DNA of 64,000 nucleotides from a virus. Its lineage: Duplodnaviria; Heunggongvirae; Uroviricota; Caudoviricetes. The stretch lies in the IMG/VR virus record IMGVR_UViG_2671180676_000004, positions 1 to 64,000 of that record; one strand, given 5' to 3'. Below the pieces are notes generated by a model. It was not told the origin of the DNA. It saw nothing but the letters and a program-made list of their open reading frames with translations, and made no database searches. Made by a program: the position numbers and the translations under genes. Position 1 is the first letter of the stretch, and each line of letters opens with the position of its first letter. Shown here in pieces: positions 3,384 through 40,829 of the stretch.

Positions 3384-3953
3384 ATGTGCAAGAAATGCAA
3401 AGCGATAGCTGATGAACAAAACGCCTTATTCGAAGAAATGGATGCTAATGAACTGGTCAAAATGTTAGCCATTCTTCGAGGAATAGAAGACGTTTCCATA
3501 TTTGAGAGAGTGGTTACAGCACTTAATTTTGAGTCCACCTTTGAAGAGCCAACTCAGGTTGTAGCTTTAGCACATCATTTCGGTGTTCATTATCTTGCTG
3601 AAAAAGAGCGCGCTGATAAGTTGCAGGCGACTTTGGATATGGTGAGCGAGACTCAACGAACTGATGACACTAACAAGAGTGAGGCGATTATTGCCAGCAA
3701 AGATCGTGAAATTGCTGGGCTTAAATCCTCTCTAACGATGTTGATGTCTGCGTTCAATCTTATATCTTCTCAGGCGGGTTATAAAATGCCATCACTAAAC
3801 AGCGATGATCCGATGGCCGTTCGTCAGCTTTTGGGAGCAATGGCCGACCAACTCGACGACACAAAGAGTCGGCTTGAAGACATGATGCGTGAGTTAAGCC
3901 ATCGACATAACCTCGCAACACAGCCACACAAAGCCTTTCAAAGCTCTAATTGA
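3384..3953 (+). CDS. Hypothetical protein (189 aa)
   Basis: ORF with SD-like AGGAAA; followed by hairpin tatggccg…cggccata at 3959-3980. Confidence 0.5.
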   Translation: MCKKCKAIADEQNALFEEMDANELVKMLAILRGIEDVSIFERVVTALNFESTFEEPTQVVALAHHFGVHYLAEKERADKLQATLDMVSETQRTDDTNKSEAIIASKDREIAGLKSSLTMLMSAFNLISSQAGYKMPSLNSDDPMAVRQLLGAMADQLDDTKSRLEDMMRELSHRHNLATQPHKAFQSSN

Positions 3954-4008
3954 TCTGATATGGCCGCATGATCGGCCATATTGTGTTGATAAAAAACAAG
4001 GATGAAAA

Positions 4009-4290
4009 ATGGCATACGGTACAGGGATTTACAACAATAAAGGAATTAACGTTACTGGCTTCCTTACTCCTATTTTTTTTCTTGATCGATTTACTGCGTC
4101 ATCAGGCTCTAAGACGTACTCCAATCCGCCACCGGGTAAATCGCTACATGCCGTGTGGTCATTGATGCCTCTTAACAACGACAACTACATTAATTTACCT
4201 GTTCCAACAGTTACTATTAATGGAAATACGGTTAGTTGGTCAAATTTATATACGGGGCTTGGTTCTTACATATACACATACTGGGGATAA
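4009..4290 (+). CDS. Hypothetical protein (93 aa)
   Basis: ATG 4009 with SD CAAGGA 6 nt upstream. Confidence 0.4.
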   Translation: MAYGTGIYNNKGINVTGFLTPIFFLDRFTASSGSKTYSNPPPGKSLHAVWSLMPLNNDNYINLPVPTVTINGNTVSWSNLYTGLGSYIYTYWG

Positions 4291-4292
4291 TT

Positions 4293-4907
4293 ATGTTCGG
4301 GATGTCAATTACTCAATCAGATGGAAGTTTGTGGATGAGTCCAGAATTTACTCCGCAAAATCTGATTAATAAAGGGACAATGTCTACATCTAAAGGTTCT
4401 GTTTTTCAAACATCAATCCCATCAAACAAATCATGCTTTTTCTTCATAAAAAGCAGTAATAAGGCGAACATGATGTTTATTCATGAGCATAGTAACGGAT
4501 ACAATGCTCTCAGATTGCATCAGGTAAATGGTAGCCCCGGAACAATAACAGTTTATGCTTTTTCTGATATGGTGTTACCACATTCTGGCTATGGCATTGC
4601 CATGTATAACAGCGCAGGCGCAATGGTGTATCACGGTGAGATGATGCCCCTTGATGCGAAACTTATCACTATTTCTGACCCTCAATTTACAATAGATATG
4701 GGGTATCCATGTGCGGTAATGCCTGCTATGGTTGGGGTATATAACTATAGACGAACCGATTACGACAGACCTGTCTATGTAACAATGACAGGTGCAACTG
4801 AAAACCAAGTATATAACGGTCAATGGTATTCCGGTAATGTCACATGGGATATTAAGAAGATTTATACAAACAAAATTCTGGTGATAAATACCTCCAAGTA
4901 TGATTAG
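4293..4907 (+). CDS. Hypothetical protein (204 aa)
   Basis: ATG 3 nt after the upstream stop; frame already open from 4236, so possibly one gene split by a frameshift. Confidence 0.4.
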   Translation: MFGMSITQSDGSLWMSPEFTPQNLINKGTMSTSKGSVFQTSIPSNKSCFFFIKSSNKANMMFIHEHSNGYNALRLHQVNGSPGTITVYAFSDMVLPHSGYGIAMYNSAGAMVYHGEMMPLDAKLITISDPQFTIDMGYPCAVMPAMVGVYNYRRTDYDRPVYVTMTGATENQVYNGQWYSGNVTWDIKKIYTNKILVINTSKYD

Positions 4908-5010: not shown

Positions 5011-5487
5011 ATGAATACAGCCCTTTCCATCATCGACGATGCCAACTCAAACACTGCTATCGACTATCGGCAGGAAATGAACGTCATCCACGAAATTGTG
5101 GCCGAGTGCGAGAAAGAGATCGCCTTCATGTATCAGGTACACGACTTCGTTTATGGCGACGAACGCCACAACATGATTAATCGCCTGCTGAGACTAAACC
5201 ATCGACCAGATGAAGATCGCTCGCGTTTAAATCGAGGTTGGTTGGATAAAGTCGATCTGGAATGGGTGAAACAGAATATTTGGGCCGAGTACTGGAGGAA
5301 GGTCACGGACATGACTAACGTTTTGCTGATCATGCCAGCTTCCCGTCGTGACGAGTGGTATGAGCAATTTATCGAGGGCAAGCAGGAAGTCATCAAAACT
5401 GACAGAACCGGCTATCAGATGAAGGTTAAAGAGTTCGTTGGTGTACCTGAGTTCAAAGTGGATACAGACATCCCTACGATGGCTTGA
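5011..5487 (+). CDS. Hypothetical protein (158 aa)
   Basis: ORF preceded by inverted repeat gcaccattaa…ttaatggtgc at 4974-5008; convergent with hsdR. Confidence 0.5.
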   Translation: MNTALSIIDDANSNTAIDYRQEMNVIHEIVAECEKEIAFMYQVHDFVYGDERHNMINRLLRLNHRPDEDRSRLNRGWLDKVDLEWVKQNIWAEYWRKVTDMTNVLLIMPASRRDEWYEQFIEGKQEVIKTDRTGYQMKVKEFVGVPEFKVDTDIPTMA

Positions 5488-5545
5488 TCTGACAGCTATC
5501 TGCAAATTGCACAGATATCTGCCAGATCTGGTTCAGATTAATACA

Positions 5546-8500
5546 CTATATCTGCCCACCTACTCCTTTGAACTTTTCAATAAACGTGACGATTTTCTGG
5601 AAAACCGTCTGTTTTTTCGTTTTATATTGCGGGTTTAACGGACTAAGTTTTGGTAATGTCTCGTTTAATTCTGTGCCATTTTCGGTGGCGTATTCGCGTT
5701 TTAAAGACGTGCGAATATAGCGTTTCGCCGCCTCTTCATTGAGATTTTCTTCTTTAATCAACGCTTCTGCTTCACGTAGCTGTTCGTGTTGAGCAAAGGT
5801 AAAGAACGCGTCAATGATGCTGGCTTTGTCTGGTAAATCATCCAGGTTCGTTTGCTGAATAAAATCGACCACCAGGCCCTCTTTAGCACGGTTCCCTAGG
5901 CTTGAACGAATTAAGCGTTTGACCTCTTCGATCATTTCGCCCTTGCCTTTATTTTGTCTGTTGTGTTCGAAAATCAGTCCAAGGATATAATCCAGGTTTA
6001 TTTCCTGAGACTTCAGCAAATCGACCTCAAAAACTACGTCATCCCAGTCAGTGGTTGATTTCTCTTTTTTCTCAGCTTCTTTCTCACGGCGCTGCCAGTC
6101 GCGAATATCGTTATAGGCAGAACGATAATCCTGAATCTTGCGATCAGCAGGGAGACGAATTGTTTGCAATTCAGCGAACTTTTCATCATCCACATAATGT
6201 TCTGCTTTGAATTTTTCTACCGCAACAGGATCGCTAAGATCGATTTGTTGCAGGGCTTTTAGCGTGGCAAATTCATCATAGTTTTGCAGGATGTTCTCGG
6301 CACGCAGGTATTCGCCAAACAGTTTAACGAAGTCTTTCTTCTCTTTTTCACTTTCAATACTGGCAGGGTCAGGGAACCGTTGTTCCAGTTCTGAAACTAC
6401 TGCCATAAAGCCGCGTTTAGCTTCACCTGTAGCAGCATCAGTAAAGCCTTCCATATACTCTGCATAACTCTTTTCTAACACTACATTTTTGGTGTTTTTG
6501 TCACCAAACAGCGTTATGGCATCGATGGTTGAGCGTTCCAGATCGCGGAAAGTGACGATATTACCGAAGGTTTTAGTCGCGTCATAAATGCGGTTGGTAC
6601 GGGAAAATGCCTGCATCAGGCCGTGAAAACGCAAGTTTTTATCGACGAATAGCGTGTTTAATGTTGGAGCATCGAAGCCGGTTAAAAACATCCCCACGAC
6701 GATTAACAAGTCAACATCCTGATTTTTAACCCGCTGAGCCAGGTCCCGATAGTAGTTCTGAAAACCCTTGCTATCAGTGCTGAAATTCATTTGAAAATGG
6801 TCGTTATACTCACGAATTGCAGCGTCCAGAAACTCTTTAGCACTGCTGTCCATTGCACTGGTATCAAAAGATTCATCGGATATTTCACCAATGGCATTTT
6901 GTTCTTCATTAGCGGCAAAGGAGAAGATTGTCGCAACACGCAGTGGTTTATAGGTAGCAGATTTATTAGCTGCTTCCTCTTGTAACCGTTTAAACGTCGC
7001 GTAATAGGCTTTCGCGGCATCCACGCTGCTCACTGCCAACATAGCATTAAAACCTTTTGAGCCAGGGAAGGTACGGTGGGTTTTCTGGCGGAAATTATTC
7101 AGAATATATTGCGTGATTTCCTGAATACGCATGGGATGAAGAAACGCCTGCTGATTTTCAGCCGCACTCAGTTTTTTCTCGTCAGTTTCTGTCTCTAAAG
7201 ACTTAAACTGTGGCCGCACATCGTTGTAGTCCACCTTGAATTTGAGCACTTTTTCGTCACGAATCGCATCGGTAATTACATACGAATGCAATTCACGACC
7301 AAATACGCTGGCGGTTGTTTCTGAGCCTAAGGCGTTTTCCGGGAAAATAGGGGTGCCGGTAAAACCAAACTGATAATAACGTTTGAATTTCTTCTTCAGG
7401 TTTTTCTGCGCTTCTCCAAACTGGCTGCGGTGGCATTCATCAAATATAAACACCACTTGCTGATTATATACAGGCAGGTCGCTTTCTGCTTTCATCAGGT
7501 TATTGAGTTTCTGAATAGTAGTGACGATAATTTTGTTATCGTCCTTATCCAGATTTCGTTTAAGGCCTGCGGTATTTTCCGAGCCGTTGACGCTGTCTGG
7601 CGAAAAACGCTGATATTCCTTCATGGTCTGGTAATCGAGGTCTTTCCTGTCGACCACAAAGAAGACTTTATCAATAAAGTCCAGCTCTGTTGCCAGACGC
7701 GCGGCTTTAAAGCTGGTGAGGGTTTTACCAGAACCGGTAGTGTGCCAGATATACCCACCGCTTTCCGGTTTTGACCAGTTCTTCGCTGTAAAGGAACTCT
7801 TAATTTTCCACAGAATGCGCTCGGTGGCGGCAATCTGGTACGGTCGCATCACCAGTAGCGTCTGACTACTGTCAAAAACGCTGTAGTTCACCAGAACATT
7901 CAGCAGAGTATGTTTCTGGAAAAAGGTAGCGGTAAAGTCTTTGAGGTCTTTAATCAGCGTGTTGTCTGATTTCGCCCAATTCATGGTGAAGTCAAAACTG
8001 TTTTTATCGCGCTTTGTGGTGTTGGCAAAATAACGGGTATCAGTGCCGTTGGAAATGACGAACAGCTGCAGATACTTAAACAGGGAATTTTCGCTGTTAA
8101 AACTCTCTTTACTGTAACGATGTATCTGGTTGAAAGCCTCACGAATCGCCACCCCGCGTTTTTTTAGTTCGATTTGCACCAGCGGTAAACCATTAACCAG
8201 GATCGTGACGTCATAACGGTTAGCATGAGAACCCGTCTGTTCAAACTGCTGGATAATCTGCACCTTATTGCGCATGAGATTCTTTTTATCTATCAAATAG
8301 ATGTTCTCAAGTCGCCCGTCGTCAAAAATAAAGTCGCAGATATAGTCGATATGGATTTTACGGGTTTTATCCAGAATACCATCGCTGGGGTTGTCCAGAT
8401 ACTGCTCCGTGAAGCGCCGCCACTCGCTGTCATTAAACATCACACCATTGAGGCTCTGAAGCTGTTCCCGAACATTGGACAGCATTGCCGACTGTGATTT

Positions 8501-8662
8501 TACGGAAATAAATTCATAACCCTGATTCCGCAGGTCCTGAATCAGTTCACGTTCCAGGTCCGATTCGCTCTGGTAGCTGTCGCTTGTTTGCTCAGCTTTG
8601 ATGTACTTATCAAGGACGATAAAGTTATTGGATTCAGCAATGGTGTGTGTTTGATGAGTCAT
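5546..8662 (-). CDS. hsdR: Type I restriction enzyme R subunit
   Basis: 1038 aa; SF2 motifs TGSGKT and DECH ([10 protein letters not shown]); directly downstream of hsdM-hsdS. Confidence 0.9.
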
Positions 8663-8784
8663 AGCGCATCCTTTGTGCCGCCTGGCAAGAGCCGGAAGGG
8701 CGTTAAGAGTGACTTCCGGCGCGTAAAAAAATAGTCTATATACTGACCGGGTGTTAAGGTGGCCCGATCGGTAGCAATGGTCAA

Positions 8785-10023
8785 TTAATTACTGACAGTT
8801 TCAGGTTTCGGGAAACTGAACAGTAAATCACGGTAGTATTCGTATTGTTTCTGGCGCAACTCGATTTCACGCGGGAGACCTTCGGTGATGGAGTTGGTCA
8901 GGGTGTCGAATTTATCGAGCAGAGCAGATATTCGCTCTTGTTTCTGTTTATCAGGCAATGGCACTGGTAATGTTTTTATAATATCTGCATTCAAGTTACT
9001 GACCGACCCGCTATTGATTTTACTTTCCCAATAATTTTTCACCTTTTTTGATGAAAGATAGTGATACAGATAATCAGCATTTAATTTTTCACCAAAATTG
9101 CTGATTGATGCCCATCCATCATGGATAGCTCCGGTTATCCTTAAAATATATGGTCTGCCAAAGCTCATAGAGTTAGAAATGACGAAATCACCGGGGTTCA
9201 AGATTCGCGATTTTTGGGCACCCTCTGCAGTTATTTTTTGTAAGGTTTTGTCAATGTATTTAGAGCCGGGGATAGTATCTCCGATTTTAATCCATGGGAT
9301 ACCATTTCCTTGTTCAGTAAGATAATTAACAATTGGCCTGGGGGATGCCCCACGTTGTATTTTGGCTACTTCTCCCAATGCCTTCCACTCAACCTCACCC
9401 TCTTTAAAACTCAGCAACTGGTCGCGATAGTAGTTGTACTGTTTTTTACGCATGTTAAGCTCAGCGGTAAGCTCAGCGGTAAGTGCAGTAAACTTATCCA
9501 GAATCCGAACAATTTCAGACTGGATGGCAAGGGATTTTCCCGGGGCGCTGGGACAAGGGATGGGTATTTGATAGTTTAAAATTGCATCTTTACTGCCTCG
9601 AGGCATCTTTGCCCCTTTAGCGTGCTGCATACTGTAAGAAAAAAATGAATCCGACGATAATGCATAGTAGAGATATTCTGGACTAATAATTTTTTTACAG
9701 TCTGCTAAAATGCGTATAGCAAGGACATCACCACTGCACCCGCCATTATTCTCCGCCATCCAAACTTTCTTTAAATATGGGCGAATATTACCTAAAAGAA
9801 TATCACCTGGCTCATAGGCAGTTAAACGTGCCGTATTAGGCTGATAGGTGGCGTCAATGCGACCGCCTTTATCAGCAAGGAGATTATCAACGCCAACGAA
9901 TGAAGTGGCATCAAGTTTATCAGCATCAACTTTGGTTGTTGAATACCCGGCGATATCGCCCACTGCTTTCCACTCAACCTCAACCCCATCCAGCAATTTT
10001 TCCAGATAACTCAACTCGCTCAT
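8785..10023 (-). CDS. hsdS: Type I restriction-modification specificity subunit
   Basis: 412 aa with two target-recognition halves, each ending in a conserved coiled spacer (…[16 protein letters not shown] / …[16 protein letters not shown]); overlaps hsdM by 4 nt. Confidence 0.85.
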
Positions 10024-11582
10024 TTCTGCACCTCGCAGCCTTCAATTTCAGCCACAATCGCATCAATATCTTTACGCAACTGGTCGATTTTGCTGACCGT
10101 GGTTTTCAGCTCTGCATTCAACTCAGCGATATCGATAATTTCGCGAGTATCTTTCACTTCAACATAGCTGCTCACCGACAGGTTATAGTCATTAGCAACA
10201 ACAGTCTCAAACGCAACAGATTTCGCCAGATGAGCAACATCTTCCTTGCTGGCAAATACCTGCATAATTTTTTCTATATGGGCATCGGTCAGAATGTTGT
10301 TGTTAGTCTCTTTTTTGAACAGTTCGCTGGCATCAATAAACTGAACTTTGGTATCCGTTTTATGTTTAGACAGCACCAGAATATTGACGGCAATGGTGGT
10401 GCCAAAGAACAGGTTCGGTGCCAGTGAAATCACGGTTTCGACATAGTTATTGTCAACCAGATACTGACGGATTTTCTGCTCCGCGCCGCCACGGTAAAAA
10501 ATGCCCGGGAAGCAGACAATCGCAGCACGACCTTTGGCAGAAAGATAGTTCAGCGCATGTAATACAAACGCAAAGTCAGCTTTGGATTTGGGGGCCAGAA
10601 CGCCAGCCGGGGCAAAACGTTCATCGTTAATCAGCGTCGGGTCATCGCTGCCAATCCATTTCACCGAATACGGCGGGTTAGAAACGATGGCATCAAACGG
10701 TTTTTCATCTCTGAAGTGCGGCTCAGTCAGCGTATTGCCCAGCTTGATATCAAACTTGTCGTAGTTGATGTTGTGCAAAAACATGTTCATACGCGCCAGG
10801 TTATAGGTCGTATGGTTGATCTCCTGACCGAAAAAGCCTTCTTCGATGATGTGGTCATCGAACTGCTTTTTCGCCTGCAACAACAGCGAACCGGAACCTG
10901 CTGCCGGGTCGTAGATTTTGTTAACGTGGGTCTGGCCGTGCATTGCCAATTGTGCAATCAGCTTAGAGACGTGCTGCGGTGTAAAGAACTCGCCGCCTGA
11001 CTTACCAGCATTCGCGGCATAGTTAGAAATCAGGAACTCATAGGCATCGCCGAACAGGTCAATCTGATGTTCGTTGAAGTCACCAAGTTTTAACCCTTCA
11101 ACCCCTTTCAGAACCGCAGCCAGGCGGGCATTTTTATCTTTAACGGTGTTACCCAGGCGGTTACTGGTGGTATCGAAATCAGCAAACAAACCTTTGATGT
11201 CAGCTTCTGAAGGATAACCGTAAGCAGAACTTTCGATAGCAACGAAGATGCTGTTTAAATCTGCGTTCAGTCTGTCATTGGTATTTGCTTTCGCCGCTAC
11301 GTTGCAGAAAAGCTGACTGGGGTAGATGAAGTAGCCTTTAGTTTTGATGGCATCGTCTTTAATGTCATCAGTAATTACGCTGTCATCCAGTTTCGCATAA
11401 CAGATACTGTCATCACCGGCTTCAATATAGCTGGAAAAATTTTCGCTGATAAAACGGTAGAAAAGTGCGCCCAGAACGTATTGCTTAAAATCCCATCCAT
11501 CGACCGAACCCCTGACATCGTTAGCAATTTGCCAGATTTGACGATGAAGCTCTGCACGTTGTTGAATACTTGTCATTTTCAT
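10020..11582 (-). CDS. hsdM: Type I N6-adenine DNA methyltransferase subunit
   Basis: 520 aa; SAM motif [10 protein letters not shown] and catalytic NPPYS. Confidence 0.9.
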
Positions 11583-11706
11583 CCACTTATTTCAGGCTTA
11601 TGTAATTGGCGGTGATTCTACAGCAACTTGGATGCTTTAGCAGTTCGGACATTAGGCAACGAATGACCTAATTAGAGCTTTTTGGAAAAGCGGTATTGTC
11701 GGTGCG

Positions 11707-11931
11707 ATGATAGCTATGTTTGGGTGCGCGATGGTGCAATACAATGACGGTGAAAAGGTAAGCATCCAGTCTGATGGCTGGTATGGGCTGGATAGCCTGC
11801 AAAAAACCGCAGATAAAGCCTGTCAGCAATATGGAAAGTCTAAAGCCGTATATCAGCATAGCGCGAACGCTAATCCACATCTCGCGCCCGGCACGGGCGT
11901 TCAGAACACTATTTGGAAATGCGAACCATAA
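11707..11931 (+). CDS. Hypothetical small protein (74 aa)
   Basis: ORF only; no clear SD. Confidence 0.25.
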   Translation: MIAMFGCAMVQYNDGEKVSIQSDGWYGLDSLQKTADKACQQYGKSKAVYQHSANANPHLAPGTGVQNTIWKCEP

Positions 11932-12114
11932 CGCAGGTTGGCTTTTTACATCTTGGGCCGAATACTGATTCCGCGCTAAGTTGTTTGTGCGGAAGTGACA
12001 CTGTGGAGCTTAGAAATAGTAAATACTGGTGGGCAACAAATTGAGCCTTCACACGCTCACCAGCACACACAAAAAATGGTTAAACAGCAAGGGAATTAAT
12101 ATCTCATCGCGACA

Positions 12115-12252
12115 TTAAATAAGCCAGCGCACGCCTCTGTTTATCACTGACTTGAAAAACCATATCAGAACCACGATGAAGACAATCGCCAGCACTTGGC
12201 TAAGAACAGGCGCATTTAAAAATGCACTTAGAAACTGAAAAAATACAATCAT
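12115..12252 (-). CDS. Small hydrophobic peptide (45 aa), type I toxin-like
   Basis: Not in ORF track; minus-strand ATG at 12252-12250 with SD GAGGA; product MIVFFQFLSAFLNAPVLSQVLAIVFIVVLIWFFKSVINRGVRWLI. Confidence 0.35.
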   Translation of the reverse strand: MIVFFQFLSAFLNAPVLSQVLAIVFIVVLIWFFKSVINRGVRWLI

Positions 12253-12708
12253 CAGGGTAATCCTCGTCTAATGTAAAGCTGTGTGCTCTCACGTTGACGT
12301 AGAAACCCAACCTCTATATAGTTGGATTCGGTGAAAGAAAGTCGTTAACGTGAACTTACGGCACATGTTTTCGGTATAAAAATCAGGGAACTGTGAATTC
12401 CTTGATGTAGTTGGGGCCTGTAATGCAGGCCCTATCTATTAATGTCATGATTACATCTCAAATTTTCTCCTTATCATTATTATTTAATAAAATTCAATTA
12501 ATATAATATCCATTTCCTGTGTGTGCAAACACAGTATGAGGAAAATGGCCCCGTTGCAAGTGCATAACTTTGTGGATAACTCTGAAGGCGAATTTACATT
12601 TCGGCGCACCGCAAGCCAGATAAGCTGTGCGCAAAAAGCAATGGGGTGAGAAAAAAACTTTGAAGATATTGCGGCGACTAAATAATAGCCGTTATTCAAT
12701 TATTCTGG

Positions 12709-12972
12709 ATGGGATTTAATATGAACGAATGGAACATAGCAGCCAAAAGCCAGGAAGAAAGGAATAAAGTTAACGTTGACCTGGCTGCCAGGGGGGTTGC
12801 CTACAAAGAGCGATTGAACATACCCGTCATAGCGGAACAGGTAGCCCGTGAGCAACCTGAGAACCTGCGCACCTATTTCATGGAACGGCTACGGCACTAC
12901 CGGCAGTTAAGCCTCCTGCTGCCAAAAGGAAACGATCCGGTATATCAGAAAGAAGATATAGCCAAAAAATAA
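12709..12972 (+). CDS. Hypothetical protein (83-87 aa)
   Basis: ORF; alternative ATG at 12721; immediately upstream of the UmuD'-like gene. Confidence 0.4.
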
Positions 12973-13070
12973 CGCGCCACCAGGCGAGCGCAAAGCATCG
13001 CGCTATTGCACACTTCAAGCATCTTTAATGTATACTGTATGGATAAACAGTACTCTGAGGTGAAAACGCT

Positions 13071-13460
13071 ATGGGCTTCCCTTCTCCTGCGGCGGATTAT
13101 GCTGAGAGTCGTATTTCTCTTGATCAGCAGATAATTAGACATCCTTCAGCGACCTACTTCTTGAGGGCAGCTGATAGTCATCATCGTGAGGGAATATTAC
13201 AGGGTGCATTGCTGGTGGTCGATTCCTCACTTACCCCGGTTGATGGTTCTCTGCTTGTATGCGCTCTGGATGGGGAATATCGCGTAAAAAGATACCGGAA
13301 GTATCCACGTCAGCATCTGGAGGATTTGAGAACCGGTAAGAAGGAAGCATTGCCAAAGGATGACGATGGATGCACGGGCAGCAATGCCGTGTTTGGTGTG
13401 ATCACTCACATTATCAACGACGCAAGAAGTGGCGAGTTTGATGATTGTCCCGTGATGTAG
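13071..13460 (+). CDS. UmuD'-like S24-peptidase domain protein
   Basis: Begins MGFPSPAADY…HPSATYF, matching UmuD from its Cys-Gly autocleavage site onward; Ser and Lys positions kept (ADSH…VKRY); no umuC partner. Confidence 0.6.
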   Translation: MGFPSPAADYAESRISLDQQIIRHPSATYFLRAADSHHREGILQGALLVVDSSLTPVDGSLLVCALDGEYRVKRYRKYPRQHLEDLRTGKKEALPKDDDGCTGSNAVFGVITHIINDARSGEFDDCPVM

Positions 13461-13496
13461 GAGAACTGATTAGGCGGTGCAATGCACCGCCTTTTA

Positions 13497-14597
13497 TCAC
13501 ACTGCGCGGAATGCGATCTCGCCAGGTATTACTTCGCCTTGCCAATACATTTGGGCAGCAACGCGATCTGCGAGGTCACGATAAATAGCCGTAAATTCGC
13601 TATCTGGACGACTAATAACGGTTGGTGTTCCGTTATCCAGATCTTCACGAAGAGAGATATGAAGTGGCATTTGGCCTAACAACTGCGTGTTGTATTTCTC
13701 GGCCAGTTTCTGTGCGCCACCGGTGCCAAAAATTGGCTCGTGATGACCGCAGTTACTGCAAATATGCACACTCATGTTTTCGACGATACCCAGTACCGGC
13801 ACTTCGACTTTTTCGAACATCACAATGCCTTTCTTCGCATCGATCAGCGCGATGTCTTGCGGCGTAGTTACCACAACCGCACCAGTTACAGGAATGTTCT
13901 GCGCCAGCGTCAACTGAATATCACCAGTGCCCGGCGGCATATCGAGAACGAGATAGTCCAGATCAGGCCATAGAGTTTCCTGCAACATCTGCATCAGCGC
14001 CTTGCTGGCCATCGGTCCACGCCACACCATTGCATTGTCGTCGGTGACCAGATAACCAATAGAGTTGGTTGCCAGGCCATGAGACATGATAGGTGCCATG
14101 TGAGTACCGTCCGGTGAGGTTGGACGTTGGTTTTCCGCGCCCAGCATGGTTGGAATTGATGGACCATAGATATCGGCATCCAAAATACCAACTTTCGCAC
14201 CTTCAGCAGCCAACGCCAGTGCCAGGTTTACCGCCGTGGAGGATTTACCCACGCCGCCCTTGCCTGAGCTGACGGCGATAATGTTCTTAACGCCATTAAT
14301 GCCTGGTTGGTTTTTGACGCGCTTAAGCGTGGCAATGTTGTACGACAGCTTCCAGTCAATAGCCTTTGCGCCAGTGATACGGAGCAGATCACCACTACAT
14401 TGCTCTTTCAGGTCTTCAAAAGGCTTATTCCACACGAAAGGCATGATTAGTTCGACATGCAGTGTGTCATCCATCAACGCAACATGGTGTAACGCTTTAA
14501 GCGTAGTCAGGTTGTGTTTCAGGGTTGGGTGCTGAAAATTAGCCAGCGTACCGGCTACCATTGCTCTCAGGGCATCCGGCGATTTGGACTCGCTCAT
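13497..14597 (-). CDS. apbC: Fe-S cluster carrier ATPase Mrp/ApbC
   Basis: 366 aa; P-loop SSGKGGVGKSST; MinD/Mrp family; divergent from metG as in E. coli. Confidence 0.95.
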   Translation of the reverse strand: MSESKSPDALRAMVAGTLANFQHPTLKHNLTTLKALHHVALMDDTLHVELIMPFVWNKPFEDLKEQCSGDLLRITGAKAIDWKLSYNIATLKRVKNQPGINGVKNIIAVSSGKGGVGKSSTAVNLALALAAEGAKVGILDADIYGPSIPTMLGAENQRPTSPDGTHMAPIMSHGLATNSIGYLVTDDNAMVWRGPMASKALMQMLQETLWPDLDYLVLDMPPGTGDIQLTLAQNIPVTGAVVVTTPQDIALIDAKKGIVMFEKVEVPVLGIVENMSVHICSNCGHHEPIFGTGGAQKLAEKYNTQLLGQMPLHISLREDLDNGTPTVISRPDSEFTAIYRDLADRVAAQMYWQGEVIPGEIAFRAV

Positions 14598-14754
14598 CCC
14601 GTCTCCTTTATTTTAATTTGCGCAATTGTCGCCTTGTAGTGTACTCCAGCTACGACATTTAATCATTTATGAGAAATGCTGTTATCACATGGCAGACATA
14701 AGGCCATTTTGTTACTATCAAGCCCCTTTTCACTACAAAGAAGTAATGCCTACT

Positions 14755-16788
14755 ATGACCCAAGTCGCGAAGAAAATTCTGGTGACGTGCGCGCTGCCGT
14801 ACGCTAACGGCTCAATCCACCTCGGCCATATGCTGGAGCACATCCAGGCTGATGTCTGGGTTCGTTACCAGCGAATGCGCGGCCACGAGGTTAATTTCAT
14901 CTGTGCCGACGATGCCCACGGTACGCCGATCATGCTGAAAGCACAGCAGCTTGGTATCACACCGGAGCAGATGATTGGCGAAATGAGTCAGGAACACCAG
15001 ACTGATTTCGCAGGCTTTAACATCAGCTATGACAACTATCACTCGACGCACAGCGAAGAGAACCGTCAGTTGTCTGAGCTTATCTATACTCGCCTGAAAG
15101 AGAACGGTTTTATTAAAAACCGCACTATCTCTCAGTTGTACGACCCGGAAAAAGGCATGTTCCTGCCGGATCGTTTTGTAAAAGGCACCTGCCCGAAATG
15201 TAAAGCGCCAGATCAATACGGCGATAACTGTGAAGTCTGCGGCGCAACATATAGCCCGACTGAATTGATCGAGCCGAAATCGGTGGTTTCTGGCGCTACC
15301 CCGGTAATGCGTGATTCCGAACACTTCTTCTTTGATCTACCTTCTTTCAGCGAAATGTTGCAGGCATGGACCCGCAGCGGCGCGTTGCAGGAGCAGGTGG
15401 CGAACAAAATGCAGGAATGGTTTGAATCCGGCCTGCAACAGTGGGATATATCCCGCGATGCGCCTTACTTCGGTTTTGAAATTCCGAACGCGCCGGGCAA
15501 ATATTTCTACGTCTGGCTGGACGCGCCGATTGGCTACATGGGTTCCTTCAAGAATCTGTGCGACAAGCGCGGCGATACCACCAGCTTCGATGAATACTGG
15601 AAGAAAGACTCCACCGCCGAGCTGTACCACTTCATCGGTAAAGATATTGTTTACTTCCACAGCCTGTTCTGGCCTGCCATGCTGGAAGGCAGCAACTTCC
15701 GCAAGCCGACCAACCTGTTTGTTCATGGCTATGTGACGGTGAACGGCGCGAAGATGTCCAAGTCTCGCGGCACCTTTATTAAAGCCAGCACCTGGCTGAA
15801 TCATTTTGACGCTGACAGCCTGCGTTACTACTACACTGCGAAACTCTCTTCGCGTATTGATGATATCGATCTCAACCTGGAGGATTTCGTTCAGCGTGTG
15901 AATGCCGATATCGTTAACAAAGTGGTTAACCTGGCGTCCCGTAACGCTGGCTTTATCAATAAGCGTTTTGACGGTGTGCTGGCAGGCGAACTGGCTGACC
16001 CGCAACTGTATAAAACCTTCACTGATGCTGCTGAAGTGATTGGTGAAGCATGGGAAAGCCGCGAATTTGGTAAAGCTATCCGTGAAATCATGGCATTGGC
16101 TGACCTGGCTAACCGCTATGTCGATGAACAGGCTCCGTGGGTGGTGGCGAAGCAGGAAGGACGCGATGCCGATCTGCAGGCGATTTGCTCTATGGGCATT
16201 AACCTGTTCCGCGTGCTGATGACGTACCTGAAGCCGGTACTGCCGAAACTGACTGAACGTGCAGAAGCATTCCTGAATACAGAACTGACCTGGGATGGTA
16301 TCCAGCAACCGCTGCTGGGCCATAAAGTGAATCCGTTCAAGGCACTGTATAACCGCATCGATATGAAGCAGGTTGAAGCACTGGTGGAAGCATCCAAAGA
16401 AGAAGTGAAAGCCACAGCCGCACCGGTAACTGGCCCACTGGCTGACGACCCGATTCAGGAAACTATCACCTTTGACGACTTCGCCAAAGTTGACCTGCGC
16501 GTGGCGCTGATTGAAAACGCAGAGTTTGTAGAAGGTTCTGACAAACTGCTTCGCCTGACGCTGGATCTCGGTGGTGAAAAGCGTAATGTCTTCTCAGGCA
16601 TCCGTTCCGCTTATCCAGATCCACAGGCACTGATTGGTCGTCACACCATTATGGTGGCTAACCTGGCACCACGTAAAATGCGCTTCGGTATCTCTGAAGG
16701 CATGGTGATGGCTGCTGGCCCCGGCGGGAAAGATATCTTCCTGTTAAGCCCGGATGCTGGTGCTAAACCTGGCCACCAGGTTAAGTAA
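14755..16788 (+). CDS. metG: Methionyl-tRNA synthetase
   Basis: 677 aa from [11 protein letters not shown]; class I HIGH (HLGH) and KMSKS motifs; zinc knuckle CPKC…CEVCG; C-terminal tRNA-binding domain. Confidence 0.97.
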
Positions 16789-16810
16789 TTAAACAACCTC
16801 TCTTCGCAAT

Positions 16811-16836
16811 GCCCGGCAACACGCCGGGCATTTTCA
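16811..16836 (+). terminator. Intrinsic terminator of metG
   Basis: gcccggc-aacac-gccgggc followed by TTTT. Confidence 0.8.
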
Positions 16837-16871
16837 TATAGACACAATCCCTTCTGATTTACACAGTACCT

Positions 16872-16886
16872 AAAACAATTTGTTTT
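16872..16886 (+). promoter_or_regulatory. Motif A palindrome
   Basis: aaaacaatttgtttt; first of two tandem copies downstream of metG. Confidence 0.45.
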
Positions 16887-16921
16887 CTACCTTTTGTTGA
16901 TGGAGATAATAAACCACATAA

Positions 16922-16937
16922 GAAAACAACTTGTTTT
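16922..16937 (+). promoter_or_regulatory. Motif A palindrome
   Basis: gaaaacaacttgtttt, 13 nt before ATG 16950. Confidence 0.45.
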
Positions 16938-16949
16938 GGAGTGGTTGAA

Positions 16950-17249
16950 ATGTTGAACATTACCCAAGCCTACCAGGTGGCATTGATCAGCTCATCTCAT
17001 ACATCAGAGGAAGATGCTCGCCGATTCATGATCGCAAGCAATGAGCTGGATTGGGTTTCACAAATTGAGTACGGTTGCATTGTCCACGCCGGGTTACAGG
17101 ACGATGACTGGAAAGATGAGTTGCGTCGATATGGTATATCCGAGGGCGCGATTGCGAACATTCAGAAAGTACTTGATGTAGGCTTTGACTCTGTACATTT
17201 TGATTGTGGTGCACCGGTCGTTGAAGGGCTAGAGTGCTGGCAATGGTAA
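16950..17249 (+). CDS. Hypothetical protein (99 aa)
   Basis: ATG 16950 with SD GGAGTGG; the track start 16941 is GTG. Confidence 0.5.
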   Translation: MLNITQAYQVALISSSHTSEEDARRFMIASNELDWVSQIEYGCIVHAGLQDDDWKDELRRYGISEGAIANIQKVLDVGFDSVHFDCGAPVVEGLECWQW

Positions 17250-17285
17250 TCCGGCAATCGCTTCATACTAGACAACGGAGAATTT

Positions 17286-17471
17286 ATGCTTAAAGAAGAC
17301 TCATATCTACTAAAGGCGCTTGAAATGCGTGGCGTTGAACCTACAGTGAAAAACGCTCACGATATCTACCTTCAGTTTTCACCGGAGCTGAAACGGTTCA
17401 TAAATCAATACGGGGTTAATGACTCAAGTGTTAAAGCAATGATAGATGATGAATTAGACCATCTCATCTAA
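17286..17471 (+). CDS. Hypothetical small protein (61 aa)
   Basis: ATG 17286 with SD GGAG. Confidence 0.45.
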   Translation: MLKEDSYLLKALEMRGVEPTVKNAHDIYLQFSPELKRFINQYGVNDSSVKAMIDDELDHLI

Positions 17472-17623
17472 TCGTTTCCTATGATAATGGTTTTCACTTT
17501 GAGATTGTTATTTTTCATAGCTAAAGCTGATGTTTGTGGAAGGTGGATTGATAAACGGATGCGTATTTAGGTTATACAAGTGAGAAAATTGATAATATAT
17601 AAACGCGATTTTTATGTGATGGA

Positions 17624-18193
17624 ATGGATGTGATGGAAACCCAGAACCAACAAACAAAACCTCTGAATAACATTTATGCGTGGATTCTAGCGTTCATGCC
17701 TTTCTTCTTTGGAGTATCGCCGGAAGAGTATACCAATTACGCTATTATAATTGGGGGTGTAACTACCATCGGTTTGTTAGTAGCTGACAGAATGGCTCTA
17801 TCGGAGTCTGGCTGTGAACCACCTTCAATTCTATGGGGGGTATTCCTCCTGCCTGTCTATCTCTGGAAGCGCGCGACTATTACAAAAGGCAGCAGAGTGC
17901 CATTTATCATAATCGTTGCGTCGCTGGCTTGGGTTATCTTCATCGGCATCCCACACAAGGACGAGGTTGCTCTTGAAGAAGCAGCCTGCCCTCTCGTGAC
18001 AACTATTCTGAAAGAGAATAACGGTTCGACTGCACCAAAATGTATGAAGGTGACAATAGAGGACAAGGTGACGGATAAGTTCTATAGAGCAACGGCTACA
18101 CTAGACAATGGTAATGACATTAACATTACTCTGGAACTTACCGGCGACAGGAACTTCTACGTCCGTGTTCCAAATGTTTATCTGAACAACTAA
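17624..18193 (+). CDS. Membrane protein with four predicted TM helices and a soluble C-terminal domain
   Basis: Hydrophobic segments IYAWILAFMPFFF, AIIIGGVTTIGLLV, ILWGVFLLPVYLW, FIIIVASLAWVIFIGI; alternative start 17633. Confidence 0.5.
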   Translation: MDVMETQNQQTKPLNNIYAWILAFMPFFFGVSPEEYTNYAIIIGGVTTIGLLVADRMALSESGCEPPSILWGVFLLPVYLWKRATITKGSRVPFIIIVASLAWVIFIGIPHKDEVALEEAACPLVTTILKENNGSTAPKCMKVTIEDKVTDKFYRATATLDNGNDINITLELTGDRNFYVRVPNVYLNN

Positions 18194-18289
18194 CGGTTGC
18201 AACTCATTGATAATGGCGGTCACAATTTGATTCTTTTCTATAAGAATCCGTTGATCGCCACTACTCCCCTTCCATACCCGCAATCACAT

Positions 18290-19100
18290 CCTTAAATATC
18301 AATAAGTTATAGTTGTTTATACAATCAAGAAAACAACTGAATAACAGATCAACGAAACATCAACGCTTTCACCCGATTTGGTCTAAAAAATTGACGTTTT
18401 CACACATCACTGCTTATACCCGTAATTCTACGCAGCAGACAGCGCCACAGCGTCCAATTTTCACCACAGACGACCCAACACACTACCAACAAAAACACAC
18501 GCTCAAAATCGTTCCCGTTGCGTTACATAACCATATAAACAACTTATTTCAGGCATAACAAAACAACTAAATAACACATATGCCATTCCCAAAACAACCA
18601 ACCTCTTTATGGCAGGCTACCGAAAAGACCCACCTCTTCTTCCCAGGCTACCGGACAACCAACCTAACTTTCACAGGCAATCCGAAAACATTCATACGCG
18701 CGATACCCACGACACGCCATTACCCAAACAGCGAAGAAACATCAGAATCACTGAAACCCCAACGAAGCCTGTAACCGCAAGGTTTCTCTCAATCCCAAAA
18801 GACACGAAACATAACAATCACGGGAAACGCCATTACCCAATACACGAATAACTACAAAAGCCCTTCACGCACTCCAGACAAACAACTCAAACACAATAAC
18901 GAAAGGAATCGCCCACCTGCCATTACTCCATACACGGAGAAGAACAATCACCAAAACGACGAGAACACCCCATAGAAGAACCACCGCAAAACGAACGAAA
19001 CCATTTACACCGACAGAGAGAACAACACGCCCAATTCACCAACAGAAATAGTCGCCGTATAGAACGTTCTGGAAGGAGTGAGCATTAACGCCTATAGAGA
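18290..19100 (+). repeat. A+C-rich, G+T-poor strand-skewed region with degenerate tandem repeats
   Basis: Repeated units such as acgccattacccaa(a/t)ac… and caggctaccg…; track ORFs here have implausible Thr/Pro/His/Gln-rich translations. Confidence 0.5.
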
Positions 19101-19261
19101 GGTTGAGACAGATAAAACACGAAGAAAACACAACATGTATAGCGAAGAAGCCAGGTATGTATAAGTGGGGAGGGAAGGAGGGGTGTCGCCTCCTTTTTCG
19201 TATTTATTCAACTCCTGATTTTATCCCCCGTAACACCCCTACGGTCAGCCTTCGGTCCATA

Positions 19262-19395
19262 CAGGGAAAAGGTTGCATCCCGCTACAGAAACGGCTGGGT
19301 TGCCTTCGGGGAACGGCTGGAGGTTTTCAGGGAAACGGTCGAGTTGCCTGTGTGGATTTCGGGAAAAGGCTCGATGCCGGTTCAGGAACGGCGGC
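19262..19395. repeat. Iteron-like direct repeat array (GGGAAAcGGc)
   Basis: Six copies (gggaaaagg, agaaacgg, gggaacgg, gggaaacgg, gggaaaagg, ggaacgg) spaced about 21-24 bp, one gap about 31 bp. Confidence 0.45.
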
Positions 19396-19728
19396 GTACC
19401 GGTATAGCGTGAGGGAGAGTTGCGGCTACCCACCTGTAATGTGCGGGAAGAAGAGAGGCGCTCACGTGCAGGCGAACTTACTTACCGCTGGATTCCCTCT
19501 GAATGCCCAGCTACAGCGTAATTGTGCCAGACAGCCAACGGGTCACAATCGATTTCAGTAGGTTTTCGGGGAGAGGATTATTCTGCCCACCAGCCACCTT
19601 CGGCCACTAAATCAGAATAATGTAAAAAGTGTACTCGATACTGAACCTGAAAACTCACTGCCAAAACAACATTCACCGGAATAAAATCCTTTTTCGCCTG
19701 TGCGTTATTGCGATAATAACACCAACGA

Positions 19729-19743
19729 GAAAACAATTTGTTT
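19729..19743 (+). promoter_or_regulatory. Motif A palindrome
   Basis: gaaaacaatttgttt, 13 nt before ATG 19756. Confidence 0.45.
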
Positions 19744-19755
19744 AAGGATTGCTTT

Positions 19756-21715: not shown

Positions 21716-21741
21716 AAGGCCATCAGCATTGATGGCCTTAA
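21716..21741. terminator. Perfect 8-bp-stem hairpin (ggccatca-gcat-tgatggcc)
   Basis: Perfect stem but no T-run, so terminator function uncertain. Confidence 0.35.
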
Positions 21742-21764
21742 ATGACCATCCTGTTTCCCGCAGG

Positions 21765-21850
21765 CTAAAAACACCAACCTCTTACCTCCAGGCAACCGAC
21801 AAACCCACCTGTTCCCGTCCGGCTACCGCAACTTTCCACTTTGACGCCTT
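21765..21850. repeat. Repeat related to 18590-18680
   Basis: accaacctctt…caggc(a/t)accg(a)ca(a)acccacct… shared between the two loci. Confidence 0.45.
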
Positions 21851-21879
21851 ATTCGTACAACGATAATTAACACCAATAA

Positions 21880-21893
21880 GAAAACAATTTGTT
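21880..21893 (+). promoter_or_regulatory. Motif A palindrome
   Basis: gaaaacaatttgtt, 22 nt before ATG 21915. Confidence 0.45.
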
Positions 21894-21914
21894 ATTTACG
21901 ATAAGGAATTAATC

Positions 21915-22397
21915 ATGAATTTTATCGCTACTGTAAACGCACCCGCACATGGCAATATCGCTGTAACGTTCTCTGACATTGAAAAACGAGTACTTGGTGC
22001 ATGGCGCGACAATGAGACGGTAGAACTGTCAGCACAAGAAAAATGCATTATTGCACGCGACATCATTGGCAATCGTCGTTACTCGCGGGTATTTGAGAAA
22101 GCGTATGTGGTAAATTCTGGATTCGGAACGTTCGTCTTTCCGGTGCGCTCCGGGCGATTCTGCCAGTCCAAGCTGATTGAGTTCGCTACGCAGATTTCTG
22201 TCTGGATTAAAACTCAATCGTCGTTCAAATTTTCCGACGATGAAGCAGTATCGCAGGGGATGCGGATCGCCAACAATGCGATTAAATGCAAAAACATTAC
22301 GTATACCGCTGGCGTTGACACATGGAAACTGTTTTGCGCTAACTTTATGCTGAATGTATACGCAAGCAACCGCATCCACATCCTTGATGGCGTGTAA
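21915..22397 (+). CDS. Hypothetical protein (160 aa)
   Basis: ATG 21915 with SD AAGGA. Confidence 0.5.
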   Translation: MNFIATVNAPAHGNIAVTFSDIEKRVLGAWRDNETVELSAQEKCIIARDIIGNRRYSRVFEKAYVVNSGFGTFVFPVRSGRFCQSKLIEFATQISVWIKTQSSFKFSDDEAVSQGMRIANNAIKCKNITYTAGVDTWKLFCANFMLNVYASNRIHILDGV

Positions 22398-22404
22398 CTG
22401 AGAA

Positions 22405-22428
22405 GAGGGCCAGAAACGGCCCTTTATC
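22405..22428 (+). terminator. Terminator-like hairpin (gagggcc-agaaac-ggccctt)
   Basis: Stem-loop right after the stop of 21915..22397; weak T tract. Confidence 0.45.
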
Positions 22429-22440
22429 TATAGCCACCAG

Positions 22441-22525
22441 CTGCCGCAGGGAAATTTTCAGAAACGGCGAGGAACGTATTCATGAGCCGACGGGGAACGG
22501 CCAGGATTTTTTCGGGAAACGGCTG
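22441..22525. repeat. Second iteron-like block (GGGAAAcGGc-type repeats)
   Basis: cagggaaa, cagaaacggcg, aggaacg, ggggaacggcc, cgggaaacggctg. Confidence 0.4.
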
Positions 22526-22987
22526 CATTCGCCTTTATGTAGAAAAAACATCGGGAAGCTGGTGGAATCCAACCAGCGGTTGTCGGACAGGTGAGCGGGG
22601 AAAATTATGATGACTTTCGTCACCTGAGACATCCAGATTTCTTTCGTAGCATAATTACATACGTGATTAAGTGGTGTGATTATGTGAAAAATCACGCGCA
22701 CATAATACGCGAGCGGATACGGAACAAAACAAAATGCCGATCCGCGCCGACAAATAAACGCGGATCATAAAGCAAGACTAAAAGCCAATGATTAACCATA
22801 CTCTATAGCGCAATATAACGCGTTTTAAGCGCGTTAATGTGTTAAGTAATGGGTATGTACTGGTAAGGATATAAAAGCGCGTCTATGGCGTTATTTTGGC
22901 GCTTATTTTTATGTTGTTGGAGTGAGTTAAAGACAATAAAAAACGCGCTAATGATGGCGCGTTATGGTGGGAGTATTGGAAACGAAA

Positions 22988-40027: not shown

Positions 40028-40774
40028 ATGTCTAATACCCATGTAAAAAACATCAAACTTGGTGCCTGTAAGGTGTCGTTTGGTGGTGTGGATTTGGGTT
40101 ACACCAAAGGTGGTGTTCAGGTTGAAGTAGCCACTGAAACGCTGAAAGTCACCGTCGATCAGTTGGGGCAGACCGTAATTTCCGAATTAGTTCAGGGGCG
40201 CAACATTACCATCACCGCGCCTCTGGCTGAGTCTGTACTCCAAAACATGGTTGACCTGATGCCTGGTTCTACTCTGAGCGAAGATGACAACTCTGTCACG
40301 ATCACATCTGCACAGGGCGTTAACCTGATTGATGTGGCGAAGGAGCTGGTTCTGACTCCGCAGGACACCACCGACTATGTGTTGACCATCCCGAAAGCGG
40401 CAACCGCGGGCAACTTCACTATGACCTACCAGTCTGATGATGTTCGTGTGTTCTCTGTTCAGTTCAGCGCATACCCGGATGATGAAGGCGTTCTGGGCAA
40501 AATGAGCGGTCCTAAACCGGTAAAAACTGTGTCGATCTCACCGGAATCTCCAACCGTAAAAGCTGGAGAAACTGTGCAACTGACAGCCGAAATCACTCCA
40601 GCTGATGCCGCAGACAAAACCGGTGTTTGGGAATCCGAAGACCAGGAAAAGGCCACGGTAGATCAAACGGGTCTTGTGCGCGGTGTGGCGCAGGGTACTG
40701 CAAACATCTCCTTCACCAGCAATAGCGGTTCTAAGAAGGCTACTAAGTCAGTAACGATTAACTCCGCAGATTAA
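40028..40774 (+). CDS. Major tail protein with C-terminal Ig-like domain
   Basis: ATG 40028 with SD AAGGAG; C-terminus resembles the 36448 repeats (…AEITPADAADKTGVWESEDQEKATVDQTGLVRGV…). Confidence 0.65.
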   Translation: MSNTHVKNIKLGACKVSFGGVDLGYTKGGVQVEVATETLKVTVDQLGQTVISELVQGRNITITAPLAESVLQNMVDLMPGSTLSEDDNSVTITSAQGVNLIDVAKELVLTPQDTTDYVLTIPKAATAGNFTMTYQSDDVRVFSVQFSAYPDDEGVLGKMSGPKPVKTVSISPESPTVKAGETVQLTAEITPADAADKTGVWESEDQEKATVDQTGLVRGVAQGTANISFTSNSGSKKATKSVTINSAD

Positions 40775-40829
40775 TCAGTAATTAAGCAGAGGCTCAGGAT
40801 GAGCCTCTCTTTTAAAAGGATTTTAACCA

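Follow-up and report, generated by a model that had tools for sequence, protein, structure and literature searches.

What does a tract of about 800 bp, rich in A and C on one strand and poor in G and T, do for the phage genome that carries it? The tract lies at positions 18290-19100 of a 64,000-nucleotide stretch of a tailed phage (Caudoviricetes; positions 1 to 64,000 of IMG/VR record IMGVR_UViG_2671180676_000004), which we call the window, and it was picked out by a model that saw only the letters and the predicted open reading frames (ORFs), here called the sequence-only reading. The 1051 bases around the tract are identical to the Escherichia coli plasmid pUTAK-6-1 (NZ_CP157149.1, 111,466 bp), match the Escherichia phages Cyrano, PhiR41_1 and CMS-2020a at 94-98% identity, and match Salmonella phage SSU5 at approximately 70%. 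By these matches the window belongs to an SSU5-like phage-plasmid, which is a temperate siphovirus maintained as a plasmid. We found that the tract is best explained as the core of a conserved non-coding control region, which joins the variable cargo of SSU5-like phage-plasmids to their early lytic genes.

The composition of the tract is extreme. The + strand contains 318 A, 242 C, 109 G and 142 T (39%, 30%, 13% and 17.5%), so that the strong A/C bias described in the sequence-only reading is borne out by the counts. Measured in 800-bp segments, the A+C fraction reaches its maximum of 0.704 in the segment starting at 18254, versus a mean of 0.498 (standard deviation 0.030), and the tract is the sole compositional outlier in the whole 111-kb plasmid (z = 7.4). 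The GC skew runs from -0.29 to -0.47 over 18200-19100 and is +0.17 past 19100, the ratio of C to G is at least 1.5 in every 78-nt segment sampled between 18210 and 18990 (the 95th percentile over the window is 1.71), and the GC content of the region is 43-46%. Because A and C cannot pair, a strand that is poor in both G and T has the least foldable composition possible. Taken as RNA, the + strand has a predicted fold of -119.8 kcal/mol for 781 nt, versus -208.7 kcal/mol for the opposite strand, or a predicted minimum free energy of -0.15 versus -0.27 kcal/mol/nt; the expectation that a G-poor transcript would be largely unstructured thus agrees with the prediction. The z-score of the + strand fold against shuffled sequences is approximately 0, indicating that the low structure follows from composition, and on neither strand is there structure beyond composition. 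A role at the level of the duplex needs no strand bias, and the bias therefore argues for selection on the single-stranded form, either RNA or transiently unwound DNA. We also considered 'inert DNA', kept free of promoters, start codons and Shine-Dalgarno words on both strands, but this was unsupported: only palindromes and + strand stop codons were depleted.

The tract is also conserved in related elements. The region is present in 836 plasmids of PLSDB (428 from Klebsiella, 224 from Escherichia, 90 from Enterobacter, 49 from Salmonella and 25 from Citrobacter), and 243 of the 5426 complete genomes of E. coli also carry it. It further occurs in 13 phage records, every one SSU5-like. With the conserved 160-aa gene that lies downstream serving as anchor, we fetched 76 IMG/VR loci, and in nearly all of those with enough upstream sequence an 800-bp segment in the corresponding place had an A+C fraction of 0.66-0.72. 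We then aligned 31 non-redundant sequences, which fall into five lineages (E. coli, Klebsiella, Enterobacter, Salmonella and Citrobacter) with mutual identities of 61-85% in the tract and of approximately 61-72% to the window. The bias is kept in all five lineages of these SSU5-like elements, and the repeats described below recur in relatives, which answers the question of conservation that the sequence-only reading had raised. The A+C fraction is 74% at invariant alignment columns and still 63% at variable columns, indicating that the composition itself is maintained and not motifs alone.

The rate of change in the tract points the same way. In three lineages the identity of the tract to the window is 0.61-0.67, while the identity at third codon positions, for members sampled at the neighboring 160-aa gene, is only 0.44-0.47. 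Within the E. coli lineage, nucleotide diversity (pi) is 0.015-0.037 in the tract versus approximately 0.09 at third codon positions, for eight sequences in which mosaicism is a caveat. Because the tract changes more slowly than third codon positions, we conclude from the alignments that it is under purifying selection, roughly as strong as that at non-synonymous sites. The lineages are mosaic, in that identity to the window varies between neighboring segments.

This conservation is not that of a protein. The sequence-only reading had judged the three overlapping ORFs in the tract (18313-18558, 18580-18774 and 18609-18851) to be implausible as proteins; the ORFs do exist, but their position, frame and length differ among lineages. 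In every lineage, each of the three + strand frames has open stretches of 60-170 codons, stop codons being rare in A+C-rich DNA. Gaps of 1, 11, 12 and 22 bases in the alignment break any frame, the insertions and deletions not being multiples of three, and the 3-base periodicity that is the strongest period in the neighboring genes is absent from the tract. No ORF between 18313 and 19561 has a Pfam or PHROG match, while every flanking gene matches a PHROG. On these four grounds we ruled out a coding sequence. The possibility that the tract is a decayed copy of the 160-aa gene was likewise rejected, as neither blastn nor tblastn found any similarity, and no tRNA or tmRNA was found in the region.

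The tract sits in a gap of approximately 1.55 kb (18194-19755) without any feature in the annotation made by the NCBI pipeline (PGAP), and the gap is equally unannotated in nearly all relatives, including all 25 of the genomes listed among the 243 from E. coli, with the exception of one transposase of the insertion sequence (IS) IS1. To its left, from approximately 5100 to 18190 of the window, is a variable cargo region with a type I restriction-modification system, metG, apbC, an S24 peptidase and the DNA polymerase III theta subunit. In Klebsiella relatives this cargo is replaced by a DUF262 protein and a type I methylase, and one deletion derivative lacks the cargo segment to the left of the tract. 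Homology between lineages begins exactly at 18198, with unrelated cargo DNA to the left; it starts with a palindromic element that we call block 1, which therefore delimits the variable cargo on its right.

Published expression data from a close relative show what happens to transcription at this edge. Misson et al. (PMC9928086) re-analyzed strand-specific RNA sequencing (RNA-seq) of E. coli LF82 carrying the phage-plasmid Cyrano, which is 98% identical here; the values in their S1 Table are log2(fpkm+5), where fpkm is fragments per kilobase per million, with a floor of 2.32. CYRAN_102, the gene that ends at window position 18193, has values of 5.6-6.0 in LB medium and up to 9.2 elsewhere. CYRAN_103, which corresponds to window positions 18313-18669 (the first 357 nt), is at 2.32 in both LB replicates and at 2.7-4.3 in the four other conditions, a fall in expression of more than 100-fold, and CYRAN_104, in the G-rich part that follows, is at 3.5-4.1 in LB and 2.6-4.7 in other conditions (PMC9928086). 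In macrophages the downstream early genes rise to 5.5-7.8 and the capsid gene to 7.3-7.8, leaving CYRAN_103 10-20 fold below them (PMC9928086). The same step is seen at a second block of the repeat that we call motif A, where CYRAN_109 has values of 5.6-8.2 and the gene after it has values of 2.3-3.1 in LB (PMC9928086). With CYRAN_102 expressed and CYRAN_103 at the floor, rightward transcription from the cargo must be stopped very efficiently at the left edge of the region. The strand-specific RNA-seq that the sequence-only reading had suggested as a check on an RNA product thus exists for a lysogen, and it places the segment at the limit of detection in LB; neither lysogens nor partially induced populations contain the tract as an abundant RNA.

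We lean, tentatively, towards a possible explanation in which this untranslated, unstructured, C-rich and G-poor sequence acts as a loading tract for the host factor Rho and stops rightward transcription before the early lytic genes. Rho loads on approximately 80 nt or more of nascent RNA that is untranslated, C-rich, G-poor and unstructured, and it silences foreign and prophage DNA. The sequence properties expected of such a loading site (rut) were found here: the RNA is C-rich and G-poor over far more than the 70-80 nt needed (C 30%, G 13%, with C/G at least 1.5 throughout), its predicted structure is slight (-0.15 kcal/mol/nt), and it lacks a conserved ORF, a period of three, a Pfam or PHROG match and any PGAP annotation. 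Without a conserved ORF, a 3-base period or a protein family, and with indels that break every frame, no ribosomes would shield the RNA. The bias kept in five lineages and at variable columns points to selection on single-strand composition rather than on motifs only, and the start of homology at 18198, immediately after unrelated cargo, is a position that supports a barrier against read-through from the cargo, as does the RNA-seq, with CYRAN_102 expressed and CYRAN_103 at the floor in LB. From this evidence we infer both a role for Rho as the terminating factor and insulation as the function under selection. In such a mechanism, a polymerase moving rightward from the cargo genes, or from a putative promoter within the region itself, would make a long untranslated RNA of C-rich, G-poor and structure-free sequence; host Rho would load on this preferred substrate and abort transcription, and the RNA would not accumulate. 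The early genes that follow, all under operator-controlled promoters of their own, would remain insulated from read-through. The G-rich array that lies past a terminator hairpin, and is C-rich on the other strand, may block leftward transcription likewise. On the - strand this array has a C/G ratio of approximately 1.7 and faces leftward genes in some lineages, and a second array of the same kind faces a convergent leftward operon, so the block may work in both directions.

Several observations weigh against a Rho barrier. The length of the tract is several times what a rut site requires. The drop in expression has already occurred before 18313, upstream of most of the tract, so that transcription may in fact be stopped by block 1. 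That a conserved promoter should fire into a zone of termination calls for an extra assumption, for example a regulated attenuator, and the conserved words need another, such as sites for a regulator. In the Klebsiella lineages the adjacent upstream gene points away and the element is still kept. Finally, a function of composition only leaves unexplained the constraint at the level of sequence and the sequence-specific repeats. In a Rho barrier, motifs A and B, the TCAAyG repeats and the operator half-sites would be taken as candidate regulator-binding sites. The positions of these elements are collected in Table 1.

Table 1. Features in and around the A+C-rich tract, in coordinates of the window
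Feature	Position	Strand	Remarks
Block 1, imperfect palindrome	18198-18275		Nearly invariant in alignments
A+C-rich, G+T-poor non-coding body	18290-19100	+	Composition, non-coding tests, conserved bias, purifying constraint
Operator-like half-site AAGAAAACAA(c/a)T(g/a)AATAACA, then two direct TCAAyG repeats	18327-18366	+	Invariant in 31 relatives
Putative sigma-70 promoter into A+C-rich body	18391-18420	+	-35 TTGACG at 18391-18396, 18-nt spacer, -10 TATACC at 18415-18420
Copy of promoter/operator module	18517-18550	+	Degenerate palindrome AAACAACTTATTT at 18537-18549 here
Motif A, ACC(A/C)ACCTCTT-N5-CAGGCTACCG, three copies with period 30-31 nt	18591-18687	+	Kept in relatives
Motif B, ACGCCATTACCCAAtACACGgAGAAgAAC, dispersed	18714-18947	+	Starts at 18714, 18827 and 18917; remnant at 18582
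G-cluster GGGGAGGGAAGGAGGGG, whose 3' part is the hairpin GGAGG...CCTCC, then TTTTTCGTATTTATT	19166-19203	+	Scores as intrinsic terminator
G-rich unit array, six copies of C(A/G)G(G/A)(G/A)AA(A/C)GG, 21-32 bp apart	19262-19400	+	C-rich on - strand
Second motif-A triplet	21739-21832	+	Nearly invariant in all lineages
Terminator hairpin of 160-aa gene, then second G-unit array	22405-22560	+	Collinear with first array

Several conserved elements lie in the left part of the region. Block 1 contains, in order, GTTGAyAtTGGCGGTCAC or GGCGGTCAC, TTTCTATAAGA and GTTGATCGCC; no compensatory change was seen in its outer arms, which are invariant. As no T-run follows it, block 1 is not a canonical intrinsic terminator. 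It could be the signal that actually stops transcripts from the cargo, or else a junction formed by recombination. Beyond the half-site and its two direct repeats, a third copy of TCAAyG lies inverted within the -35 region of a conserved, putative sigma-70-type promoter that points into the tract and is preceded by an A-tract. A simple promoter scan missed this promoter because its -10 hexamer lacks the final T. Among the 31 sequences from five lineages, however, both hexamers are invariant (the -10 being TATAyC), and the spacer between them varies in sequence and is fixed in length.

The half-site AAGAAAACAA is common to a promoter/operator module found throughout the plasmid. The module consists of a -10-like element, approximately 7 nt, and AGAAAACAAnnTGTTT; its approximately 15 copies in the plasmid all lie on the + strand, and each precedes the ribosome-binding site of an operon by 10-30 nt. 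The operons so preceded include the early genes, the terminase operon, the partition ATPase and the DnaB-like helicase. Copies in the window are at 2624, 3353, 16873, 16924, 19731, 20215, 21118, 21882, 31022 and 60455, with the others elsewhere in the plasmid. The module has the look of a site to which a single global regulator of the phage-plasmid binds. The palindrome in the copy inside the tract is perfect, TAAACAAnTTGTTTT, in four lineages (including Klebsiella, Salmonella and Enterobacter) and decayed in the E. coli lineage. At the other end, the G-cluster and hairpin at 19166 close the G-poor tract. The hairpin is kept in all lineages, but weakly, with many G-U pairs and a single compensatory pair. 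We rejected a conserved RNA structure for the region as a whole: block 1 has no compensatory changes, the terminator hairpin has one pair, and the G-array has less structure than shuffled sequences.

The repeats themselves are real, but their description as degenerate tandem repeats in the sequence-only reading was overstated. Tandem Repeats Finder reported nothing in 18290-19100 at a score of at least 30, no repeat period dominates the region, and only motif A forms three adjacent units of 30-31 nt; a tandem repeat array was therefore rejected. The core of motif B, GCCATTAC, occurs at 18716, 18829 and 18919, where this 8-mer is expected 0.01 times in the region, and 4-5 copies of motif B are present in SSU5-type relatives. 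A search for the repeat in other genomes, as the sequence-only reading had proposed, found motif A in IMG/VR only in SSU5-like contigs. The related block noticed at 21765-21850 corresponds to the second motif-A triplet, which lies between the hairpin after the preceding gene and the -35 element of the promoter of the 160-aa gene. The two G-unit arrays (19262-19400 and 22411-22560) follow directly after terminators and are kept in all lineages, and the sequence of the G-units is less structured than shuffled sequences on both strands. GGA words are not enriched in the arrays beyond composition, so a role for them as a sponge for CsrA is unsupported.

One collinear frame is present twice, at 18591-19400 and at 21739-22560: three copies of motif A, approximately 700 nt, a hairpin terminator and an array of G-units. 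The first frame encloses the A+C-rich body and the second encloses the conserved 160-aa gene, and the two bodies share no similarity. Because the order and the distance of approximately 700 nt are the same in both, the A+C-rich body fills the slot of a protein gene. A separate observation concerns CYRAN_43 (positions 40268-40822 of the Cyrano record, 'hypothetical protein'), which is by far the highest-expressed feature of that phage-plasmid, at log2 values of 11.5-14.9 (PMC9928086). We saw no homologous slot at the corresponding place in pUTAK-6-1, and candidate identities for CYRAN_43 are a gene for an RNA and a moron resembling a toxin-antitoxin system.

A body in a gene slot could be a gene for RNA, and the sequence-only reading had proposed a sponge for proteins. 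In its fullest form, this would be a long non-coding RNA of the lytic phase, approximately 750 nt long, starting from the promoter (18391-18420) and ending with the hairpin (19172-19198), whose unfolded, G-poor body titrates a host factor binding single-stranded RNA, with Rho itself as the most fitting target. Such an RNA would explain a layout that resembles a gene without an ORF (a conserved promoter, sites of the type found in early-gene operators, and a hairpin with a T-run), the strand-specific composition kept at variable sites, the repeated words, and the fact that the body occupies a slot that holds a protein gene in the other frame. However, a stoichiometric sponge should be abundant, and the first 357 nt stay close to the floor or on it in all RNA-seq conditions, even those in which early and capsid genes reach log2 values of 7-8, which counts against it. 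Words of the Hfq type, (ARN)n or AANAANAA, and GGA words of the CsrA type are not enriched beyond composition, their counts being equal to or lower than it predicts, and Rfam gave no match at the gathering score and only one chance-level hit at E <= 10. We found no antisense targets in the plasmid, where complementary 11-12-mers occur only at chance level, and so rejected an antisense regulator. An untranslated C-rich RNA would itself be open to truncation by Rho, and the operator module inside the tract has decayed in the E. coli lineage. Given the floor-level signal in the lysogen, the lack of Hfq or CsrA words and the Rfam result, the sponge was unsupported, and we consider an RNA of the lytic phase unlikely. 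A narrower version, in which an early-lytic burst from the operator-linked promoter yields an RNA of approximately 750 nt that decoys Rho or another factor and relieves termination on the long phage operons, seems to us very unlikely; if true, the decoy would be an RNA-based counterpart of protein inhibitors of Rho such as Psu of P4. We also rejected a type III toxin-antitoxin system, as its combination of tandem RNA repeats, a terminator and a ToxN/AbiQ-family toxin gene was not found.

If instead the selected form is unwound DNA, the tract would be a cis-acting element for lytic DNA metabolism, most likely a lytic origin that is activated by transcription and is separate from the plasmid origin with its RepA and iterons. 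The plasmid origin itself is elsewhere: the gene for a RepB-family initiator, repA, and its iterons are approximately 75 kb from the tract, at 12810-14600 of the pUTAK-6-1 record and outside the window. At least 15 GTATGCTGTCAGCGGT iterons flank repA, 4-5 of them upstream and approximately 10 downstream in an arrangement like that of P1 or F, and none occurs in the A+C-rich region. Moreover, the Kluyvera plasmid pSCW13-2 has an IS3-family element (3774-4885) inside the tract of an otherwise complete phage-plasmid, the E. coli plasmid elppa10 has an IS1 in the same situation, and several IMG/VR elements lack the tract, one of them retaining the G-array only. As these plasmids persist despite insertion or loss, the tract is not needed for replication or partition. 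Of the DNA-level role suggested in the sequence-only reading, the plasmid origin can thus be set aside, and a lytic origin is left as a rival, one that we regard as doubtful but serious. There, opening driven by the promoter would expose the unfoldable A+C-rich strand as a loading zone for the phage helicase and polymerase, with the repeat arrays as initiator sites. Consistent with such an origin are a conserved non-coding block of 1.5 kb with four repeat families, including six units 21-32 bp apart; promoters directed into the block; the abrupt change from G-poor sequence to a G-cluster at 19166; replisome genes of the element's own, annotated outside the A+C-rich region (dnaE, a DnaB-like helicase, ligase and RNase HI); silence in lysogens; and the dispensability of the region for maintenance, which fits a function that is lytic only. 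However, with a GC content of 43-46% there is no AT-rich unwinding element, inspection revealed no convincing DnaA or IHF sites, the repeats of the tract differ from the RepA iterons, and the cumulative GC skew has no turning point here. The motif-A triplet and the G-units also bracket the ordinary 160-aa gene, and arrays duplicated in this way look as if they belong to transcription units and not to an origin. The tract might also serve as a recombination anchor, a conserved flank at the edge of the cargo hotspot that promotes homologous exchange of accessory modules between phage-plasmids. The exact start of homology beside unrelated cargo and the mosaic lineages would fit, and RecA prefers GT-rich single-stranded DNA, which the bottom strand of the tract would provide. 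But the tract has no cluster of Chi sites (the 21 in the plasmid are evenly spread, the nearest at 19594), any conserved flank would serve, and the promoter and terminator signatures and the repeats would go unexplained; we think an anchor scarcely probable. The slimmest chance is given to a functionless, decayed remnant or spacer whose skew reflects local mutational bias. Silence, tolerance of IS insertions and the lack of an identifiable product are what a remnant would show, but the same skew is retained in five lineages and 836 PLSDB plasmids, evolution is slower than at synonymous sites, invariant hexamers surround a variable spacer of fixed length, and the boundaries are sharp, with a skew of 0.4-0.5 that is far above known mutational asymmetries linked to transcription or replication.

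SSU5-like phage-plasmids are common in clinical Enterobacteriaceae, more than half of the 836 PLSDB plasmids being from Klebsiella, and they carry resistance and defence cargo directly beside this region. A conserved block of 1.5 kb without a gene or an annotation, of extreme strand composition and exactly at the boundary of cargo and backbone, could be what enables these replicons to take up arbitrary cargo without switching on their lytic genes, or it could be their lytic origin. Either outcome, barrier or origin, would bear on the stability and inducibility of these vectors, and a long Rho-loading barrier would offer a compact natural insulator for synthetic constructs. In the literature searched we found no published description of the region; a preprint on heteroresistance concerns a different phage-plasmid family. 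The element itself is undescribed, and unusual in its length, strand composition and repeat organization, while the kinds of element proposed for it (a Rho barrier, a lytic origin, a regulatory RNA) are known.

Comparison with known systems places the tract among several of them. The injection-stop, repeat-rich region of phage T5 is, like the region described here, a non-coding block of more than 1 kb with several repeat families beside small early genes; to our knowledge SSU5-type phages are not known for two-step injection and no strand skew has been described for T5, and we know of no sequence similarity between the two. The sponge RNAs CsrB and CsrC (for CsrA) and CrcZ (for Hfq/Crc) resemble the tract as non-coding units with a promoter, a terminator, repeated short words and low predicted structure, but the tract is not abundant in the available RNA-seq, has neither GGA nor A-R-N/AANAANAA enrichment nor an Rfam match, and is approximately twice as long. 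With P1 oriL, T4 oriF and oriG, and ColE1-type origins the tract shares a repeat-bearing non-coding or regulatory setting in an early region, inward promoters and no role in maintenance, and, as in other systems with separate lytic origins, the SSU5-type element encodes its own replisome and RNase H. Unlike those origins, the tract has no AT-rich unwinding element and no recognizable initiator gene alongside, and its arrays are duplicated around an ordinary gene. A typical rut site is approximately ten times shorter, without a conserved promoter of its own or conserved sequence-specific repeats, and the tract is also enriched in A and depleted in T rather than only poor in G. Nevertheless, the RNA of the tract, like that of the rut regions of lambda tR1 (rutA and rutB), is untranslated, C-rich, G-poor and, by prediction, unstructured; as in the silencing of prophage and foreign DNA by Rho, expressed genes precede the tract and genes that have to be kept off follow it.

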